Assembly (NCBI GenBank): GCA_034226945.1
Contig: CP120457.1
Coordinates: forward strand, 186,001 to 250,000
Source: Picochlorum sp. SENEW3
Lineage: Eukaryota
DNA: 64,000 bases
Reading direction: 5' to 3'
The position numbers and the translations under genes are program-made. Below the pieces are notes generated by a model. The model searched no databases and was not told the DNA's origin. It saw only the letters and a program-made list of their open reading frames with translations. Of the stretch, positions 1,017 to 14,755 are shown piece after piece (positions within the stretch are counted from its first letter, which is position 1; the number at the start of each line of letters is the position of its first letter).

Positions 1017-3044
1017 ATGAAACGAGAGGTTCGGTTTGCATTACGTCAGATTGTAAGGAATGCATGTTCTCATGCGAAGGGTGTGCCCAATGTGAATGGC
1101 AGTGGAGGAGGCGTGGTCTCGGAACCATGGCATAGGGCTTTTGGCTCTCGAGGAATCTGTCACGGTGGAGGGGGTGGCATGGGGTATCGGTCTGGTGATT
1201 CCCATGCTTATTATGGGCAATATGTGCATATGAATAGGTATCATGATGGGCGGAGCAGCAATGGTGGGGTTGTTGGGGCCATGCGATTGTTGAACGACGG
1301 CATGTTCCCCCGCGGCTGTGGAGGGGAGTGCGTGGGGAGATCGAGGCCGTCGCATGTGTACATGGGATATCGGGAGTACTATGGGACTCCTCATGATATG
1401 CGAGCATTGACGGCGGAGGAGGAGCAGGCGGAGCATATGGACCCAAGTTTTGCCAGGGGGACGCCGAGTGTGTGTGTGGATGCGCATGCGACCATGGTGG
1501 AGGAGATGGATGTTCCGCTGGATTTTGATGATCCAAAGGCTGCGTTTGCGAGTAAGACGACGTGGGAGATTATGCGATCGCTGATTGTGTTTCGAGTGTG
1601 TAAGATTTCATGGTTGGTGCAAAAGGCTGATACAGCGTTGAAGTGGAGCAAGCGGTTGTTTACGCCGTACCTGGTGAACTTTGTGGTGAAGAACTCGTTT
1701 TATCAGCAGTTTGTGGCGGGGGCTGATGCGGAGGGTATTCGGCCTGTGATGGAGCATTTGGAGAGGAATGGGATTCATTCTGTGTTGGACTATGCGGCAG
1801 AGGATGATGTGGATGAGGAGACTGGGGTGGCGCAGAGTCGAGCGTTGGGGGGTATTTCGAGTGCGGAGGATTTGAGGATCAGTACTGTTGTAGCGAGGAC
1901 GTACAGATATGAGGATGAGGAGGCTTGTGATAAGAGGATGAATAATTTCCTGAAGAGTATCAAAGCTGCTGGGTTGGTGGATAGGCAAGGGTTTACGGCC
2001 ATCAAAGTGACGGCGTTGGGAATGCCGATGCTGTTGGAGAGAGTTTCAAATGCTCTTTTGGCTGTTCGAGACTTGTTCAAGCAGTTGGATGAGAATGGTG
2101 ATGGTCACTTGGATGTGGATGAGTTCAAGCGGGTGTGCAAAACCATTTTTAATGCAAGCTCTGATGATTTACACCGACTGTTTGACCGTTTGGATACTGA
2201 CCATGATGGAAAAGTGGACTACTTGGCCTTTACAAAGGGGATTACTGTGTACAGAGGAACTGAAATTGCATCTCGTTGTAAAGAGGAGGGTCCCTTTTCG
2301 AGAGCAGCGTTGGACGAGGAGGAGTTGCGGTTGCTCGATAATATGCTGCGGCGTGTAAATATTCTCGCCGAGGCTGCTGTGGATGCTGGAGTGAGGTTGA
2401 TGGTGGATGCCGAGCATTCATATTTCCAGCCAGCGATTGATTCTGTGGTGACGGAACTTCAGAGAAAGTTTAATAAGAACGAGCCACGCGTGTACAATAC
2501 ATATCAATGTTATTTGAAGGATTCTCACGATAGAATTTTGGTGGATTTGGAGAGGTCTCGTCGTGAGGGATACAAGTTTGGATGCAAATTGGTACGAGGT
2601 GCATACATGGTATTGGAGAGGGAGAGAGCGGCAGAAAAGGGGTATCCCTCGCCCGTGTGGGATACCAAAGAAGAAACTCACGCATGTTATGATGGAGCTG
2701 TGGCGATGCTGTTGCCGTGGGTACAGAATAACGGTGCTGAATTCATGGTTGCCTCTCATAATCAGAGGTCTGTGGAGCTTGCGGTGGCAGGTATGAAGGC
2801 CAGTGGGTTGCCACCGGATGCACCAGTCTACTTTGGACAGCTCTTGGGAATGGCTGATAATTTGACGTATACGTTGGGCGCCCATGGGTATGGTGCATAC
2901 AAGTATGTTCCTTTTGGAAGCGTCGATGAGGTCATGCCATATTTGATTCGAAGAGCTCAGGAGAATAGCGATGTTCTCGGAGGGATTGCAAAGGAGACAA
3001 AAATGTTGCGATCTGAATTGAAAAGACGATTGCTTCCTTTCTGA
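1017..3044 (+). CDS. PRODH: Proline dehydrogenase (mitochondrial) with an EF-hand insertion
   Basis: Motifs LDYAAE, VDAEHSYFQP, YNTYQCYLKD, KLVRGAY, ASHN, GQLLGM, YKYVPFG, PYLIRRAQEN. Two DxxxDG EF-hand loops. Confidence 0.95.
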   Translation: MKREVRFALRQIVRNACSHAKGVPNVNGSGGGVVSEPWHRAFGSRGICHGGGGGMGYRSGDSHAYYGQYVHMNRYHDGRSSNGGVVGAMRLLNDGMFPRGCGGECVGRSRPSHVYMGYREYYGTPHDMRALTAEEEQAEHMDPSFARGTPSVCVDAHATMVEEMDVPLDFDDPKAAFASKTTWEIMRSLIVFRVCKISWLVQKADTALKWSKRLFTPYLVNFVVKNSFYQQFVAGADAEGIRPVMEHLERNGIHSVLDYAAEDDVDEETGVAQSRALGGISSAEDLRISTVVARTYRYEDEEACDKRMNNFLKSIKAAGLVDRQGFTAIKVTALGMPMLLERVSNALLAVRDLFKQLDENGDGHLDVDEFKRVCKTIFNASSDDLHRLFDRLDTDHDGKVDYLAFTKGITVYRGTEIASRCKEEGPFSRAALDEEELRLLDNMLRRVNILAEAAVDAGVRLMVDAEHSYFQPAIDSVVTELQRKFNKNEPRVYNTYQCYLKDSHDRILVDLERSRREGYKFGCKLVRGAYMVLERERAAEKGYPSPVWDTKEETHACYDGAVAMLLPWVQNNGAEFMVASHNQRSVELAVAGMKASGLPPDAPVYFGQLLGMADNLTYTLGAHGYGAYKYVPFGSVDEVMPYLIRRAQENSDVLGGIAKETKMLRSELKRRLLPF

Positions 3045-4173: not shown

Positions 4174-6678
4174 TCATGGGTTCTTGGAGCACACGTAAAA
4201 TGTTGGAACATCGACTGCATTGATGCCATTGAATTTGGATGCTCCACACAGTGTGTAGGCACCCATACCTGGGAACATGAGCCAATCCCCAACTTCCATC
4301 TCAGGCAGGCTGTATTCTCGCAAGACTGTATCAAGTCCATCGCAAGTTGGCCCAAACACGGTGGAGCGTCTCAATGGACGCTGCTTGCCATCATCATTCA
4401 ACACCAAGGCACGTGGTGCCAGGGTAGCATGATCATACATGAGACAATTCATCGAGCCATACAATCCATCTGTGATCCAGTAATCAAAATCGATTGGGGA
4501 ATTCTCTTCATACGTGTGTGGTCTTGAACGGCGCCCATACACCAACGTTCCAAGCGTGGCAATAGATTCAGCGAAGAAGCGGCCAGGTTCGGCAATGATT
4601 GAGACACCAGAACTTTCTGGGAAGTGCTCATCCAATGCAGCGTTGAGGGCTGCTGGAACACCTTCAAGATCGACCTTGCCAAAGGAATTGAACTTTCCTC
4701 CGCAGAATCCACCTCCAACGTCCAGAATCCTCATATCAAACCCATATGATGATCCCAAGTCAAATGCCTTCCGTGCCAATTCAATGGCAAACGTGAATGC
4801 ATTTGGATCCGTCGCTCCTGACCCGACATGGAATGACACACCATCGACAGGTATTTTGTGTCTCTGTGCTGCTGCAAAGAGCTCCTCCCATTCCCATTCC
4901 TCAGCTCCAAACTTGTTGCCAAGAGGGCAACGTGCAGATGGATCATCTGCTCGGATGCGAAGCAGCACTCTGGACCCTGGCGCCAACCTGTTCAATTTGA
5001 TAAGCTCTGATTCTGTATCAAATGTACTGTGCATAATTCCACGCTGAGCAGATGCTCTGATATCCGAAGGCCTTTTGCATGGATTGGCAAAGATGATGCG
5101 ATCAGCAGTAACTCCCAAGGACATCACTTGTTCCACCTCTGCCTCAGACGCGCAATCAAACCCTGCACCAAGAGATGCAAGAGCTTCAAGAAGGGCCCGA
5201 TCATTGTTGCATTTGACAGCATAATGTGGGTGAATGCGAGGCATGGCCTCCTGCCATGCATGATACAACCTCCTCACAACTGCCAAGTCCATGATGTAAA
5301 AGTTGTCTTCAATCATATGCTCCTCAATCAACTTGCGAGCGAATCCATCAATTGTTGCTGGCAGACAATTTTCCAACTGCGTTGCACCAACAGATGTCAT
5401 GACATCCTCAAACGTTCTGTTTGCATACATGGCAGTAACACCACAATCAGAGGAATTCTCCGAGGATGTGGCCATAAAATCCGAATCTTGCTGCAACGTA
5501 GAAACAAACGTCTTTGACGATGGAATCTGTTTCAAAACCGCTCTGGGACTTTGTTGCCCATCCGCATGCTTCTTCTTCTTTGCAGTCTCCACTCTGGAAA
5601 GGGTGAAAAAGGCCACTTCTCCACCGCAAGAGTCCTCTTGATAGGATGTGCAGCTGAATGTATATCCAGTTGGACAAATCAAGGATGCTGGGAAGTGTTG
5701 ATGGTTTGCATCAACGGAAAATGCCACGGCTGCATATGTTGGCTCAAACGCCCTGACTGTCTTTGACACATATTCACTCACTGCAGCAGCGCTCACCTTT
5801 TCTCCACACACCTCGAATGATGCATATGAGAACTCCTCTTCTGGGGTAATATGAATGGTTGAAAACTCTGAACCACATGTTCCATTCATCGAATATCCGC
5901 ATGGTTCAAACACATAATCATCAATGGCGTGGCTTGGTACAATGGACGAAATGCCTGATGACATGGTTGTCATCTGGGAAGACACAAAAGATTCTCCCCT
6001 CACAAACTGACTCGCCTTTTCTGGCGCCAGCCCAGTCATGCAAATCTCCAGAGTGTTGGTGCCAGCCACAGCACTGTTCTCTTGAGATGCATCACCGTCT
6101 TTGTCTTGCTTCATTCCAGCCACAAATACATGCCACTGCAGCCCACCCAACGCATCTCCGAGCACATAGGCAGACGTGGCATCCAAATGATTGTACAACC
6201 CAAACATGTCCTTCAACATGGAGCACTCGTTGTCAAACTTTTGATACGTCTCTGGCTGCTTCTCAGGAAACAGAAATGATGCACGTGAGTATTTCACGCG
6301 ACATGGCTCCATTCCAATCCCATCTGCCGTTTCCAACATGAAAGGAATGCATGACAGCAACTTTGTTGTCCCACACGTCTTCAGCACAATCTTATCCGAG
6401 TACACAAACAATGACGATTCAGACAGCACATACGCATCCAAATCGGTATTCGATGTATGAGACACAACCTCACATTCTGCCATGCGAAGCATAGCATCCA
6501 GCGTGGACTGCGTCACATCTCTCCTCAGGCAGGGGTGACGCCGTGCACCCCCACCCTTGGTGTCCTTGCTCTTCTCCTGAAAACTCACTACAATCCTCTT
6601 CTCACTGCCTTCAAACACAGGCATAGGATACACCTCTTCAGCATAGACCTCACCGGTCGATGTCACTCCAATACCCAT
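4174..6678 (-). CDS. SAMDC-ODC: Bifunctional S-adenosylmethionine decarboxylase / ornithine decarboxylase fusion
   Basis: N-half: FEGSEK, YVLSE/SSLFV (pyruvoyl cleavage site), KTCGTT, FEPCGYSMN, TIHITPE. C-half: YAVKCN (PLP Lys), FDCAS, SFHVGSG, DVGGGF, EPGRF, YDH, GPTCDGLD, GAYT. One uninterrupted ORF. Confidence 0.95.
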   Translation of the reverse strand: MGIGVTSTGEVYAEEVYPMPVFEGSEKRIVVSFQEKSKDTKGGGARRHPCLRRDVTQSTLDAMLRMAECEVVSHTSNTDLDAYVLSESSLFVYSDKIVLKTCGTTKLLSCIPFMLETADGIGMEPCRVKYSRASFLFPEKQPETYQKFDNECSMLKDMFGLYNHLDATSAYVLGDALGGLQWHVFVAGMKQDKDGDASQENSAVAGTNTLEICMTGLAPEKASQFVRGESFVSSQMTTMSSGISSIVPSHAIDDYVFEPCGYSMNGTCGSEFSTIHITPEEEFSYASFEVCGEKVSAAAVSEYVSKTVRAFEPTYAAVAFSVDANHQHFPASLICPTGYTFSCTSYQEDSCGGEVAFFTLSRVETAKKKKHADGQQSPRAVLKQIPSSKTFVSTLQQDSDFMATSSENSSDCGVTAMYANRTFEDVMTSVGATQLENCLPATIDGFARKLIEEHMIEDNFYIMDLAVVRRLYHAWQEAMPRIHPHYAVKCNNDRALLEALASLGAGFDCASEAEVEQVMSLGVTADRIIFANPCKRPSDIRASAQRGIMHSTFDTESELIKLNRLAPGSRVLLRIRADDPSARCPLGNKFGAEEWEWEELFAAAQRHKIPVDGVSFHVGSGATDPNAFTFAIELARKAFDLGSSYGFDMRILDVGGGFCGGKFNSFGKVDLEGVPAALNAALDEHFPESSGVSIIAEPGRFFAESIATLGTLVYGRRSRPHTYEENSPIDFDYWITDGLYGSMNCLMYDHATLAPRALVLNDDGKQRPLRRSTVFGPTCDGLDTVLREYSLPEMEVGDWLMFPGMGAYTLCGASKFNGINAVDVPTFYVCSKNP

Positions 6679-6683
6679 GGTCT

Positions 6684-6711
6684 TGTTCTTCTTCTTCTTC
6701 TTCTTCTTCTT
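6684..6711. repeat. (CTT)n/(AAG)n microsatellite in the SAMDC-ODC leader just upstream of the ATG
   Basis: Run of ttcttcttc... seen directly. Confidence 0.85.
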
Positions 6712-6760
6712 GATGTAAAGAGTGTGAGTGTCTCCAAATATGTGACACTTCTACTATGTG

Positions 6761-7106
6761 TTATTTCGGTTTCTTCACGCAATCAGACGTAATCGCGCTG
6801 TAATACTCTGCAACATACATATTCATACCATCACATCCCCTTCTCCACACACACACACACATCATCATCCACTCCAAACGCACCTACTCCCCAGGGCCTC
6901 AAGTCTTCCACAAGTGGCGGCAGCGGTGGCTCTCTAGATACTCGAGGAGCGCTCACACAACACTCCCCCGCGCCTCTATTCAAATAAAAATCGCTATACT
7001 GACTACTACTAACAGCCCCTCCTTCTATTCTATCAATCTCAGAGGCGGGTAATCGACAACGCGAACGAGTCGACGACGGCGAATCTTCTTCTGACGATGC
7101 AAGCAT
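6761..7106 (-). promoter_or_regulatory. Conserved-peptide uORF of AdoMetDC mRNA, intron-split (exons 7106-6884 and 6807-6761)
   Basis: Removing the intron GTGCGT...TTGCAG (6883-6808) gives the C-terminus ...PLPPLVEDLRPWGVEYYSAITSDCVKKPK*. This resembles the plant AdoMetDC small uORF end (roughly APLGYSIEDVRPNGGIKKFxSxxYSNCxKxPS*). Confidence 0.85.
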
Positions 7107-7451
7107 GCTCTGATACCACCATAAATTTCTTCATATGTATTCGTATATCTAAACCTGTCACTTCAAGATGAATTGATGGGTAGATGGATAGTCAACGCCT
7201 CACACACGGACTCTTGGTTGCTCAGTGATCGAGATGATCGACAACAACAACACCTGCTGTGAATCACAAATCCTCTCACACACAGCAATTTGTAAAGTTA
7301 TTACAATATAAATACAGGCGGATCATGCCATGAGCAATATTCATCAGCCAACCACATCATGCTGCATGCAGCATGATGTGGGATTGTCGCAGACGCCGCG
7401 GCTCTCGACAAGCTCCCTCCTCTTCAAAGAGGAATGGCGCTCCATCTACTA

Positions 7452-7721
7452 CTATTCAGTATGCCTTGTCACACATGCATCTAATGCTCGACTCTCTTCA
7501 TGACACAGCATAGGAGAAGAAGAAGAAGAAGAAGACGATTCTTGGCACTGGTGCAGAGCATCCACCTCCTCTGGGCACATGGTCTTGAGTCGGCACCACA
7601 CAAGCCTTGTGGCAAGATGCTTGCAAGGTCCGTGCATTCCATCACCCGTATTAGGTGGTAGTATCTTTTCCATTCTCTTCATACAAGATATGTATGCTGC
7701 TTCGACTCGATCACAGCTCAT
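7452..7721 (-). CDS. Small quadruple CX9C (double CHCH) protein, putative mitochondrial intermembrane-space MIA40 substrate
   Basis: Cys pairs C3/C13, C33/C43, C49/C59 and C73/C83 are each exactly CX9C. Confidence 0.8.
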   Translation of the reverse strand: MSCDRVEAAYISCMKRMEKILPPNTGDGMHGPCKHLATRLVWCRLKTMCPEEVDALHQCQESSSSSSSSPMLCHEESRALDACVTRHTE

Positions 7722-11650: not shown

Positions 11651-12841
11651 ATGACCATGACAATGCACCGAGTGCTCCTTCTGCTCTTCTTAGCGCAATG
11701 CGCTCTTGCGAGGCTCAAGCCAATATTCTCATTCTCTGATCAAGAGGACGCTATCGCCTGGAGCAAAGAAGTCCTCAAGCTGAAGGAGCAGTATGACTCC
11801 AACAACGAGGAGGAGGCTCTTGCTGCGAGGAAAGAGGTCGCAACGCTCAGTCGGGAGTGGCGCGAAGAATTTGACGTGAAATGGCCTGAAAAGCTAGTAT
11901 CAGAGAAGTTCAGGATCTTCACGAACAATCTGTGGTATGTGGGGAAGAAGAATATCAGACTGGCAGAGGCAAAGAGTCCTTGGTGGGTGTCACAGGGCAA
12001 GTTTGCTGACCTGACCTTTTCTCAATTCAGGAGAGAATATCTGATTGATGACCTTGTCAGACCGAGGAAAGACATTTTCTTGTACAAATTCAGAATCAGA
12101 ATATTTAGGTGCTTTGACTGGAGGAATCGGGATGTTGTGACTGGTGTCAGGAATCAAGGAGCGTGTGGGTCTTGCTGGGCCTTTGCCGCCATCGCTACCA
12201 TCGAGTCCAGGTACTTGATCGAGAATGGAGAGACTGTGGATGAGAATCCGATCAATTTGTCCGAGCAGCAGTTGGTGGACTGCGTGAGATCACCCAGGAG
12301 GGATTTCAGCAATGACAGGTATGACTCTGTTGGTTGCTCGGGAGGGTACTCCAACGAGGCGATGGAGTATGTTCGCCAGCACAATGTCACCTATGAGTCA
12401 GTCTATCCATACACTGCGTCTAATGGTGAGTGCAATCAAAATCCGCTGGACGGGTCAAGTCCTGCACCAGCTATCGAACTGGGAGGTCCAATTCCAGGAT
12501 GGAGTTACTACTCAGGGGGCAACTCTACCATCATCAAATCGCTGGTCAATGTGGCCCCTGTGGTCAACTACATCAGGGTAGAAGCTGCTTTCCAGTTGTA
12601 CAATGGTGGGGTCATGGATACAGCTTGTGCCAATCAGGGAGTCAATCATGCTACTGCAATCGTTGGGTACTGCTCCAGTCAGCTTTTGTTTGGAAACTTC
12701 AACTATTGGATTGTGAAAAACAGCTGGGGAACTGGTTGGGGAGAAAATGGATTCTATAGAATTCAAACTGTCCGAAATGGGGCAGGTATCTGCCAGAGCC
12801 AATCAAGCATTTTCCAGCCAACAAAGCCAAGGGATGCTTGA
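11651..12841 (+). CDS. Secreted papain-family (C1A) cysteine protease, copy 1
   Basis: Signal peptide, I29-like prodomain (FADLT), QGACGSCWAF, LSEQQLVDC, NHA, VKNSWG. Confidence 0.93.
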   Translation: MTMTMHRVLLLLFLAQCALARLKPIFSFSDQEDAIAWSKEVLKLKEQYDSNNEEEALAARKEVATLSREWREEFDVKWPEKLVSEKFRIFTNNLWYVGKKNIRLAEAKSPWWVSQGKFADLTFSQFRREYLIDDLVRPRKDIFLYKFRIRIFRCFDWRNRDVVTGVRNQGACGSCWAFAAIATIESRYLIENGETVDENPINLSEQQLVDCVRSPRRDFSNDRYDSVGCSGGYSNEAMEYVRQHNVTYESVYPYTASNGECNQNPLDGSSPAPAIELGGPIPGWSYYSGGNSTIIKSLVNVAPVVNYIRVEAAFQLYNGGVMDTACANQGVNHATAIVGYCSSQLLFGNFNYWIVKNSWGTGWGENGFYRIQTVRNGAGICQSQSSIFQPTKPRDA

Positions 12842-13570: not shown

Positions 13571-14755
13571 ATGACAATGCACCGAGTGCTCCTTCTGCTC
13601 TTCTTGGCGCAATGCGCTCTTGCGAGGCTCAAGCCAATATTCTCATTCTCTGATCAAGAGGACGCTATCGCCTGGAGCGAAGACGTCCTCAAGCTGAAGA
13701 AGCAGTATGACTCCAAAAACGAGAAGGAGGCTCTTGCTGCGAGGAAAGAGGTCGCAACGCTCAGTCGGGAGTGGCGCGAAGAATTTGACGTGAAATGGTC
13801 TACAAAATTACTTCAGAAAAAGCTCAAGGTGTTCACGGACAACTTATGGTATGTTGGGGAGAAGAATGTGGAGTTGGCCAAGGCAAAGAGCCCATGGTGG
13901 GTGTCACAGGGCAAGTTTGCAGACCTGACCTTTTCTCAATTCAGGAGAGAATATCTGATTGAAGACCTCAAAGTACCAAAGTTTGACTTTGATCTAGAGG
14001 ACTTGAAGATCAGGTTGTTCAGGTGCTTTGACTGGAGGGATGAAGATGTTGTGACTGCTGTCAGGAATCAAGGAGCATGTGGGTCTTGCTGGGCCTTTGC
14101 CGCCATCGCTACCATCGAGTCGAGGTACTTGATCGAGAATGGAGAGACTGTGGATGAGAATCCGATCAATTTGTCCGAGCAGCAGTTGGTGGACTGCGTG
14201 AGATCACCGAGGAGGGATTTGAACAATGACAGGTATGACTCTGGTGGCTGCACAGGGGGATGGTCCGAGGAGGCCATGGAGTATGTTCGCCAGCATAATG
14301 TCACCTATGAATCCGCCTATCCATATACTGCATCGAATGGTGTTTGCAATCAAAATCCACTGGACGGGTCAAGTCCTGAACCAGCAATGACCTTGGGGGG
14401 TCCAAATCCAGGATGGAGTGGCTATTCAGGGGGCAACTCTACCATCATTAAATCTCTACTTGCTGTATCGCCTGTGGCAAACTACATCAGGGTGGAGAAT
14501 GGTTTCCAGTTGTACAATGGTGGGGTCATGGATACAGCATGTGCAGGTCAGGGCATTAATCATGCTACTGCAATTGTTGGATACTGCAACAGCAAGCTTC
14601 TTTTTGGAAACTTCAACTATTGGATTGTGAAAAACAGCTGGGGAACTCGCTGGGGTGAAGATGGCTATTACAGGATTCAAACTCGGCGAAGCGGGGCAGG
14701 TGTTTGTGAAAGCCAGTCAAGCATTTTCCAGCCAACAATACCTACAGAGGCTTGA
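13571..14755 (+). CDS. Secreted papain-family (C1A) cysteine protease, copy 2 (tandem paralog)
   Basis: Same motifs as copy 1, with long stretches of near-identical nucleotide sequence. Confidence 0.93.
   Translation: MTMHRVLLLLFLAQCALARLKPIFSFSDQEDAIAWSEDVLKLKKQYDSKNEKEALAARKEVATLSREWREEFDVKWSTKLLQKKLKVFTDNLWYVGEKNVELAKAKSPWWVSQGKFADLTFSQFRREYLIEDLKVPKFDFDLEDLKIRLFRCFDWRDEDVVTAVRNQGACGSCWAFAAIATIESRYLIENGETVDENPINLSEQQLVDCVRSPRRDLNNDRYDSGGCTGGWSEEAMEYVRQHNVTYESAYPYTASNGVCNQNPLDGSSPEPAMTLGGPNPGWSGYSGGNSTIIKSLLAVSPVANYIRVENGFQLYNGGVMDTACAGQGINHATAIVGYCNSKLLFGNFNYWIVKNSWGTRWGEDGYYRIQTRRSGAGVCESQSSIFQPTIPTEA

Follow-up and report, generated by a model that had tools for sequence, protein, structure and literature searches.

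Background

The closest described counterpart of the locus analyzed here is the leader of green-plant AdoMetDC mRNAs. The available part of PMC2811004 describes, for land plants, a small uORF in this leader that acts by a sequence-dependent, polyamine-responsive mechanism, and gives a penultimate proline as a feature of its peptide. The same pages report the small uORF in green algae, with peptides printed for Chlorella NC64A, Chlorella vulgaris, Micromonas, and Ostreococcus, and report the accompanying tiny uORF as absent from Chlorella and prasinophytes. The same AdoMetDC uORF is noted in Ulva and Chlamydomonas in the accessible text of PMC2075485. As for the enzyme, a review available in part calls bifunctional AdoMetDC/ODC unique to plasmodia (PMC3253432). 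In the portion of PMC6356823 that is available, Table 2 lists a single accession of Micromonas pusilla under both ODC and SAMDC, and the green fusion is thus at least implicit in print. In a search confined largely to openly accessible literature, we found no paper describing this fusion in the green lineage, and the available portions of PMC10407285, PMC12803844, PMC8545783, PMC3476827, PMC13582744, and PMC9305500 do not mention it.

We analyzed a stretch of 64,000 nt from Picochlorum sp. SENEW3 (hereafter the window), in which a leader of this type precedes a fused enzyme. The first-pass annotation of this DNA had presented the small uORF as a land-plant element newly placed upstream of both enzymes. 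The placement stands, since AdoMetDC and ODC are encoded in one ORF. The novelty does not, since the algal uORF has been published (PMC2811004, available part) and the association of uORF and fusion is widespread.

The fused AdoMetDC-ODC gene

The main ORF (4174..6678, minus strand) encodes 834 aa. Its first half is an AdoMetDC (aa 21-329; PF01536 of Pfam, E 2e-93) and its second half an ornithine decarboxylase (aa about 457-831; PF02784 and PF00278); a match of the fusion to TIGR00535 is also above the cut-off. The best solved relatives of the ODC half are mouse and human ODC (E 1e-102), with the chlorovirus arginine decarboxylase ranking behind them, and the close homologs of the whole protein are Picochlorum proteins. 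Residues E87-S88, C102, S263, H276, K489, and C779 show no variation among 19 aligned homologs, and the invariant positions presumably correspond to the pyruvoyl site, the PLP lysine, the catalytic cysteine, and the ornithine-binding aspartate. Judging from the sequence, both active sites are intact.

In the genome G000 (13.85 Mb, 14 contigs), AdoMetDC and ODC were each matched once, counts that are lower bounds; the remaining PF02784 match is best assigned to lysA. The fusion is thus apparently the only source of both activities in this alga, and, both domains being in one main ORF, any repression by a uORF would affect both enzymes. A search of G000 for antizyme gave no match, and the control of that search likewise matched nowhere.

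The small uORF and its intron

Read without splicing from the ATG at 7106 on the minus strand, the small uORF is a 91-aa frame that ends in a GT-rich tract. Removal of positions 6883-6808 leaves an 89-aa ORF whose stop (TAA, 6763-6761) lies 82 nt upstream of the main ATG (6678). The first exon (6884..7106) has a conserved acidic/serine start, a variable linker, and a conserved P-L..ED-L-R-P-W-G core. It is followed by a 76-nt GT-AG intron of phase 1 (6808..6883) and by a second exon (6761..6807) with the conserved C-terminus, the penultimate proline, and the stop. The spacer to the main ORF (6679..6760) varies in length, from 82 nt here to 31 nt in locus L002. On all these points (coordinates, intron, distance of the stop from the main ATG, and low-complexity end of the unspliced frame) the first-pass annotation was exact. 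In the window (6763-6758, minus strand), as in L002-L005 and most prasinophyte-type loci, the two nucleotides after the small-uORF stop are CA, a stop context that may be under selection.

The intron is used, at least at the level of assembled contigs. The joint 6807|6884 occurs in contigs of three of the four runs examined among 22 listed (X1, X6, and X9, from three studies); X9 alone is recorded as RNA, X1 and X6 being guessed to be RNA. The contigs with the joint cover 7106, and the transcript therefore includes the uORF start, as had been supposed. In X14, which is probably DNA, a contig over 6514-7326 has the intron unspliced. A single X6 contig (7262-4885) runs from the leader through the uORF and the AdoMetDC domain into the ODC domain, although an assembled contig is not a single molecule and loses rare variants. 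The X6 contigs reach up to 7262 and those of X9 to 7242, points past which that of X14 continues, and X1 extends to 7672; these ends hint weakly at a transcription start near 7262-7242, which would give an AUG-free 5' leader (7135..7262). The spliced leader has no ATG before 7134 and has exactly three, at 7134, 7122, and 7106.

The position of the intron is shared with L002 (74 nt) and L005 (155 nt), while L003 and L004 are intronless there and the intronless relative P0126 has identical residues across the junction site. Intron-bearing uORFs were also found in land-plant-type (L059, L062, L068, L077) and prasinophyte-type loci (L047, L050, L052, L057), with the intron nearer the stop; L049 is the spliced version of L050. 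The intron had been put forward as a special feature of this leader. On the evidence of these loci, introns in the AdoMetDC small uORF are ordinary, and it is the position here that differs from the other two types. In the related strains P0127 and P0128, the intron contains no stop and keeps the frame when left unspliced, so that read-through yields 113-114 aa with the conserved C-terminus.

Two further candidates were discarded. Intron retention as a switch finds no intron-covering contig in X1, X6, or X9, and its outcome would depend on the strain (a stop here, an in-frame read-through in P0127 and P0128). The X9 joint 6659|6742 (AT..AT ends, depth 5.2) was rejected as splicing and is attributed to a strain whose spacer is shorter (cf. 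L002). The small-uORF intron is probably constitutive and lies outside the switch.

On the same strand, directly upstream of the fusion gene, lies a CHCH/Cmc1-like ORF of 89 aa (7721-7452, minus strand; PF08583 above cut-off), which is found upstream in L002 and L003 too. A TGTAA signal at 7305 precedes the apparent start of the fusion leader by about 40 nt, and the X1 contig 6898-7672 reaches from the uORF into the CHCH region; read-through or a bicistronic RNA from the CHCH gene is possible. A proline-dehydrogenase-like ORF with an EF-hand-like insert (1017-3044, plus strand, read by eye) is convergent with the fusion gene and adjoins it also in L003 and L004; proline and ornithine metabolism are linked. 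The window further contains a tandem pair of papain-like cysteine protease ORFs (11651-12841 and 13571-14755, plus strand, read by eye).

Family membership of the small uORF

A profile built from six streptophyte leader peptides gives the spliced peptide 19.4 bits, the form made from an alternative donor (see below) 11.0, and the unspliced form 8.3. With the same profile, shuffled sequences reach at most 8.7 bits (none of 2000 attains 19.4; 1639 were reported), and the 1292 stop-to-stop frames of the window at most 8.0. Profile-profile comparison (hhalign) of six algal with four plant peptides results in a probability of 87.5 and an E of 3.5e-6 over 34 columns. The homology to the AdoMetDC leader proposed in the first reading is thereby borne out.

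P0130, a public 89-aa Picochlorum model beside the fusion gene, is identical to the spliced peptide at 88 of 89 positions, and its sole Pfam match is PF08132 (E 8.2e-4, 19.6 bits), under the curated cut-off of 25 bits. However, the peptide of L042, recognizable as the published Ostreococcus uORF, scores below it as well (14.3 bits), which means that the cut-off leaves out accepted algal members. The scores are 92-109 bits for land-plant-type uORFs and 20.5 and 16.9 for L003 and L004, close relatives without the intron; two of the 11 distinct uORFs scanned (L023, L033) have no PF08132 match. No Pfam match was obtained with the unspliced 91-aa ORF, with exon 2 by itself, or with the final 45 aa encoded by exon 1, and a six-frame PF08132 search of G000 missed the uORF locus, its single match (E 0.585) being at L001. 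A scan of metagenomes kept 80 stretches of 488 confirmed, with an AdoMetDC domain in 67 of the 80 loci.

Comparison with L003 over the final 26 codons shows 21 identical residues, with 16 synonymous and 5 non-synonymous changes; by this measure, the C-terminus is under purifying selection at the protein level. The spliced uORF is real, and it is the Picochlorum member of the already published green-plant family of AdoMetDC leader peptides.

Some public gene models offer another reading, in which exon 1 is taken as the first coding exon of an N-terminally extended enzyme and is joined to the main ORF by splicing: the Picochlorum models P0143 and P0132 and the Chlorokybus model P0060 splice or fuse the uORF sequence into the enzyme. 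We give this almost no credence. A joint from exon 1 to the main ORF is absent in the four runs, exon 2 and its stop are conserved, P0143 and P0132 give conflicting joins, and 18 of the 19 aligned homologs begin near the main ATG. Furthermore, P0130 annotates the 89-aa peptide separately, under the label of hypothetical protein. The four models are likely annotation errors, and public annotations thus carry a gene-model error in which this uORF is either spliced into the enzyme or called a hypothetical protein.

The alternative donor

The sequence has a GTAGGT (6882..6887, minus strand) 4 nt upstream of the used donor. Splicing from 6887 would give an 83-aa product with a frameshifted tail, and the first-pass annotation had suggested that regulated use of this site swaps out the inhibitory C-terminus and switches repression off. 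The site does exist and would shift the frame. It matches the U1-complementary consensus at five of nine positions, against six of nine for the used donor, and the frameshift deletes the conserved tail, at a cost of more than 8 bits of the profile score (19.4 to 11.0). Several strains of the L002 lineage have valine at the codon concerned, so that the site is not unique to the present strain. However, the corresponding joint 6807|6888 was found in none of the four runs. The strains behind X6 and X9 do carry the GTAGGT, since within this exon their contigs depart from the window only at positions 7015 and 7174. The alternative form could still escape, as contigs, which are not single molecules, lose rare variants and as its use might call for polyamine treatment; its abundance is therefore bounded only loosely.

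The comparison with relatives gives another account of the site. L002 and L005 keep the intron but have GC in place of the donor-like GT, and the valine at the codon overlapping the donor is also present in intronless relatives. GTAGGT accounts for 13 of the 427 NNAGGT hexamers in the window. The site is thus explained by the valine codon, a by-product expected when an exon ends in GTAG. Moreover, the alternative product would still be an 83-codon uORF, and a uORF of that length is a poor substrate for reinitiation. A switch by alternative splicing is unsupported, and we hold it to be very unlikely.

The overlapping uORF

The first two ATGs of the leader open a second uORF, missed in the first-pass annotation. 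It runs from 7134 or 7122 to the TGA 7041-7039 (7039..7134, minus strand; 31 or 27 codons) and covers the small-uORF start out of frame, in the register of the green-algal 'tiny' uORF. Its starts lie 28 and 16 nt before the small-uORF ATG here and in L002 and L003, and 22 nt before it in L004/L007. Both starts have a pyrimidine at -3, a context weaker than that of the main ORF or that of the small uORF, which has A at -3. Among the 21 loci examined, an overlapping AUG uORF in this register occurs in L002, L003, L004, and L007 (its length is 21-29 codons in L003 and L004). It is missing in L005 and nine prasinophyte-type loci, and is therefore dispensable elsewhere. The upstream ORF of L053 ends short of the small-uORF start, and five land-plant loci have their own short overlapping uORF; the automated choice of starts in this survey misassigned that of L059.

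Some loci show other arrangements. L005 (3421-3455) has no upstream AUG, but in the tiny-uORF register CTG codons precede its small-uORF ATG by 34 and 22 nt, and the more distant of them has A at -3 and G at +4; a non-AUG overlapping uORF is possible there. The land-plant-type loci L065 (162-191) and L067 (654-680) have an overlapping uORF of 8-9 codons that starts 7 nt upstream, in the algal register and not with the usual 1-nt overlap.

The overlapping region is strongly conserved. Its block 7134-7072 is identical to L003 at 59 of 63 nt, as against 96 of 269 four-fold sites of the main ORF; with L002, the identity is 95 of 96 in the overlapping-uORF block and 160 of 262 at four-fold sites. 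Such conservation could also be that of a DNA or RNA element, the overlapping frame being incidental. In favor of this, the block is conserved at the nucleotide level, its single-frame part has one synonymous change, and the overlapping peptide of L004 differs in sequence. Yet L004 retains the upstream AUG and the register despite its changed sequence, and this register is that of the three published algal tiny uORFs (PMC2811004, available part). An RNA hairpin was rejected as the cause of the conservation, since the block folds worse than shuffled sequences (z of +1.6 to +2.3 in five of six folds), which also speaks against a structural element. We consider an incidental frame rather doubtful.

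The overlapping uORF has the position and the conservation of a tiny uORF but not its shortness; on this sequence evidence we treat it as one that would work like a tiny uORF, without classing it as one. In the plant model, the tiny uORF hides the inhibitory AUG, which makes the overlapping uORF a natural candidate for the switch, and probably a likelier one than the alternative donor.

Proposed regulation

Taken together, the Picochlorum leader is probably the green-plant AdoMetDC dual-uORF leader, in which a stalling peptide and its bypass would set the activities of both enzymes. Ribosomes starting at 7106 would make the 89-aa peptide, and high polyamines would hold them at its Pro-x-stop end, blocking the main ORF. 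Ribosomes starting in the weaker contexts of 7134 or 7122 would pass over the small-uORF start and stop at 7039, from where reinitiation might take place 284 nt downstream, although the 27-31 codons of the overlapping uORF may limit it. Leaky scanning beyond all three AUGs may contribute. With AdoMetDC and ODC joined in a single polypeptide, and no other copy of either found in G000, such feedback would set both together.

We infer that the leader responds to polyamines. Features that count against the dual-uORF account include the length of the peptide (89 aa, versus 48-55 in land plants), the PF08132 score of P0130 (19.6, versus a cut-off of 25), and the lack of an overlapping AUG uORF in L005 and nine prasinophyte-type loci. 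The small uORF might instead be a sequence-dependent constitutive dampener, or respond to another signal, with polyamine feedback located elsewhere. The polyamine response on record is indeed for land plants (PMC2811004, in the part available), and the algal peptide is long and divergent; but the core and the penultimate proline are conserved before AdoMetDC from prasinophytes to angiosperms, and we regard this alternative as unlikely.

A small uORF in Picochlorum was in itself to be expected, and it is rather its context that may interest specialists of polyamines and translation. In a small transformable alga, it could be tested directly whether a single stalling peptide keeps the supply of putrescine and decarboxylated AdoMet in balance.

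The fusion in the green lineage

Both enzyme domains are present in 118 of the 120 homologs listed (of 832; length 458-1460 aa), from prasinophytes to ferns. The matches listed include fused proteins of the algae Micractinium, Trebouxia, Coccomyxa, Bryopsis, Tetraselmis, Cymbomonas, and Klebsormidium, and of the land plants Marchantia, Riccia, Selaginella, Adiantum, and Ceratopteris. In the Chlorokybus protein P0060, PF08132 is above its cut-off ahead of both enzyme domains. At 15 of the 17 loci with both domains in one ORF there is a recognizable small uORF, called by motif in 11 cases, by reading in three, and by profile score only in L051. These loci represent about nine distinct types, and the uORFs of L020 and L063 are divergent. 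The arrangement of uORF and fusion thus spans algae, liverworts, lycophytes, and ferns.

In a quick tree of 52 AdoMetDC domains, midpoint-rooted, without a non-green outgroup and with fused rows taken from a length-filtered search, seven stand-alone sequences of land-plant type (support 99) fall within a grade made up of fused proteins from charophytes, liverworts, lycophytes, and ferns; the state changes four times overall. This placement suggests an ancestral fusion and repeated fission in green plants. The stand-alone AdoMetDCs L066, L071, and their near-copies group with prasinophyte sequences in this tree, and within 1000 nt upstream of them no match to the small-uORF profile was found (2-3 bits).

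We tentatively propose, as a scenario with somewhat less than even chances, that the bifunctional AdoMetDC-ODC is ancestral in green plants and that the uORF circuit arose on the fused mRNA as one feedback on both rate-limiting enzymes, as antizyme provides for ODC in animals and fungi; the stand-alone AdoMetDC of seed plants would then be a fission product that kept the uORFs. As Picochlorum keeps a long overlapping 'tiny' uORF, the dual-uORF design may predate the core-chlorophyte split.

Comparison with known systems

The Picochlorum small uORF resembles that of green plants (PF08132; CPuORF homology group 3) in its position before AdoMetDC, its core motif, and its D-C-x-K-K-P-x end with the penultimate proline. 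Compared with the Chlorella sp. NC64A peptide in Suppl. Fig. 2 of PMC2811004, a source available in part, 18 of 31 C-terminal residues are identical (ungapped, counted by eye). The Picochlorum peptide ends in lysine after 89 aa, whereas the shorter peptides of land plants end in serine. Its intron comes right after the core, in contrast to about five codons before the stop in land-plant-type and prasinophyte-type loci.

The overlapping uORF shares its register with the tiny uORFs of Ulva, Volvox, and Chlamydomonas, which start 16, 13, and 16 nt upstream according to the available part of PMC2811004, and shares with the green-algal tiny uORF a weaker start context. It is much longer, with 27-31 codons as against 7-9 in Chlamydomonas, Volvox, and Ulva and 2-3 in land plants. 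Picochlorum, of the trebouxiophyte lineage, has it despite the absence reported for Chlorella in the accessible pages of the same study (PMC2811004), while prasinophyte-type loci lack an overlapping AUG uORF.

The enzyme also has counterparts. Micromonas pusilla, like Picochlorum, has ODC/SAMDC as a single protein (PMC6356823) and a small uORF (PMC2811004), both sources being available in part; the accessible portion of PMC6356823 does not comment on fusion or joint control in this alga. Like the AdoMetDC/ODC of Plasmodium falciparum, as described in the available part of PMC3253432, the Picochlorum protein consists of an N-terminal AdoMetDC, a linker, and a C-terminal ODC in one ORF. The Plasmodium enzyme is about 170 kDa (PMC3253432, same part), whereas the Picochlorum fusion has 834 aa and stands behind a plant-type pair of uORFs.
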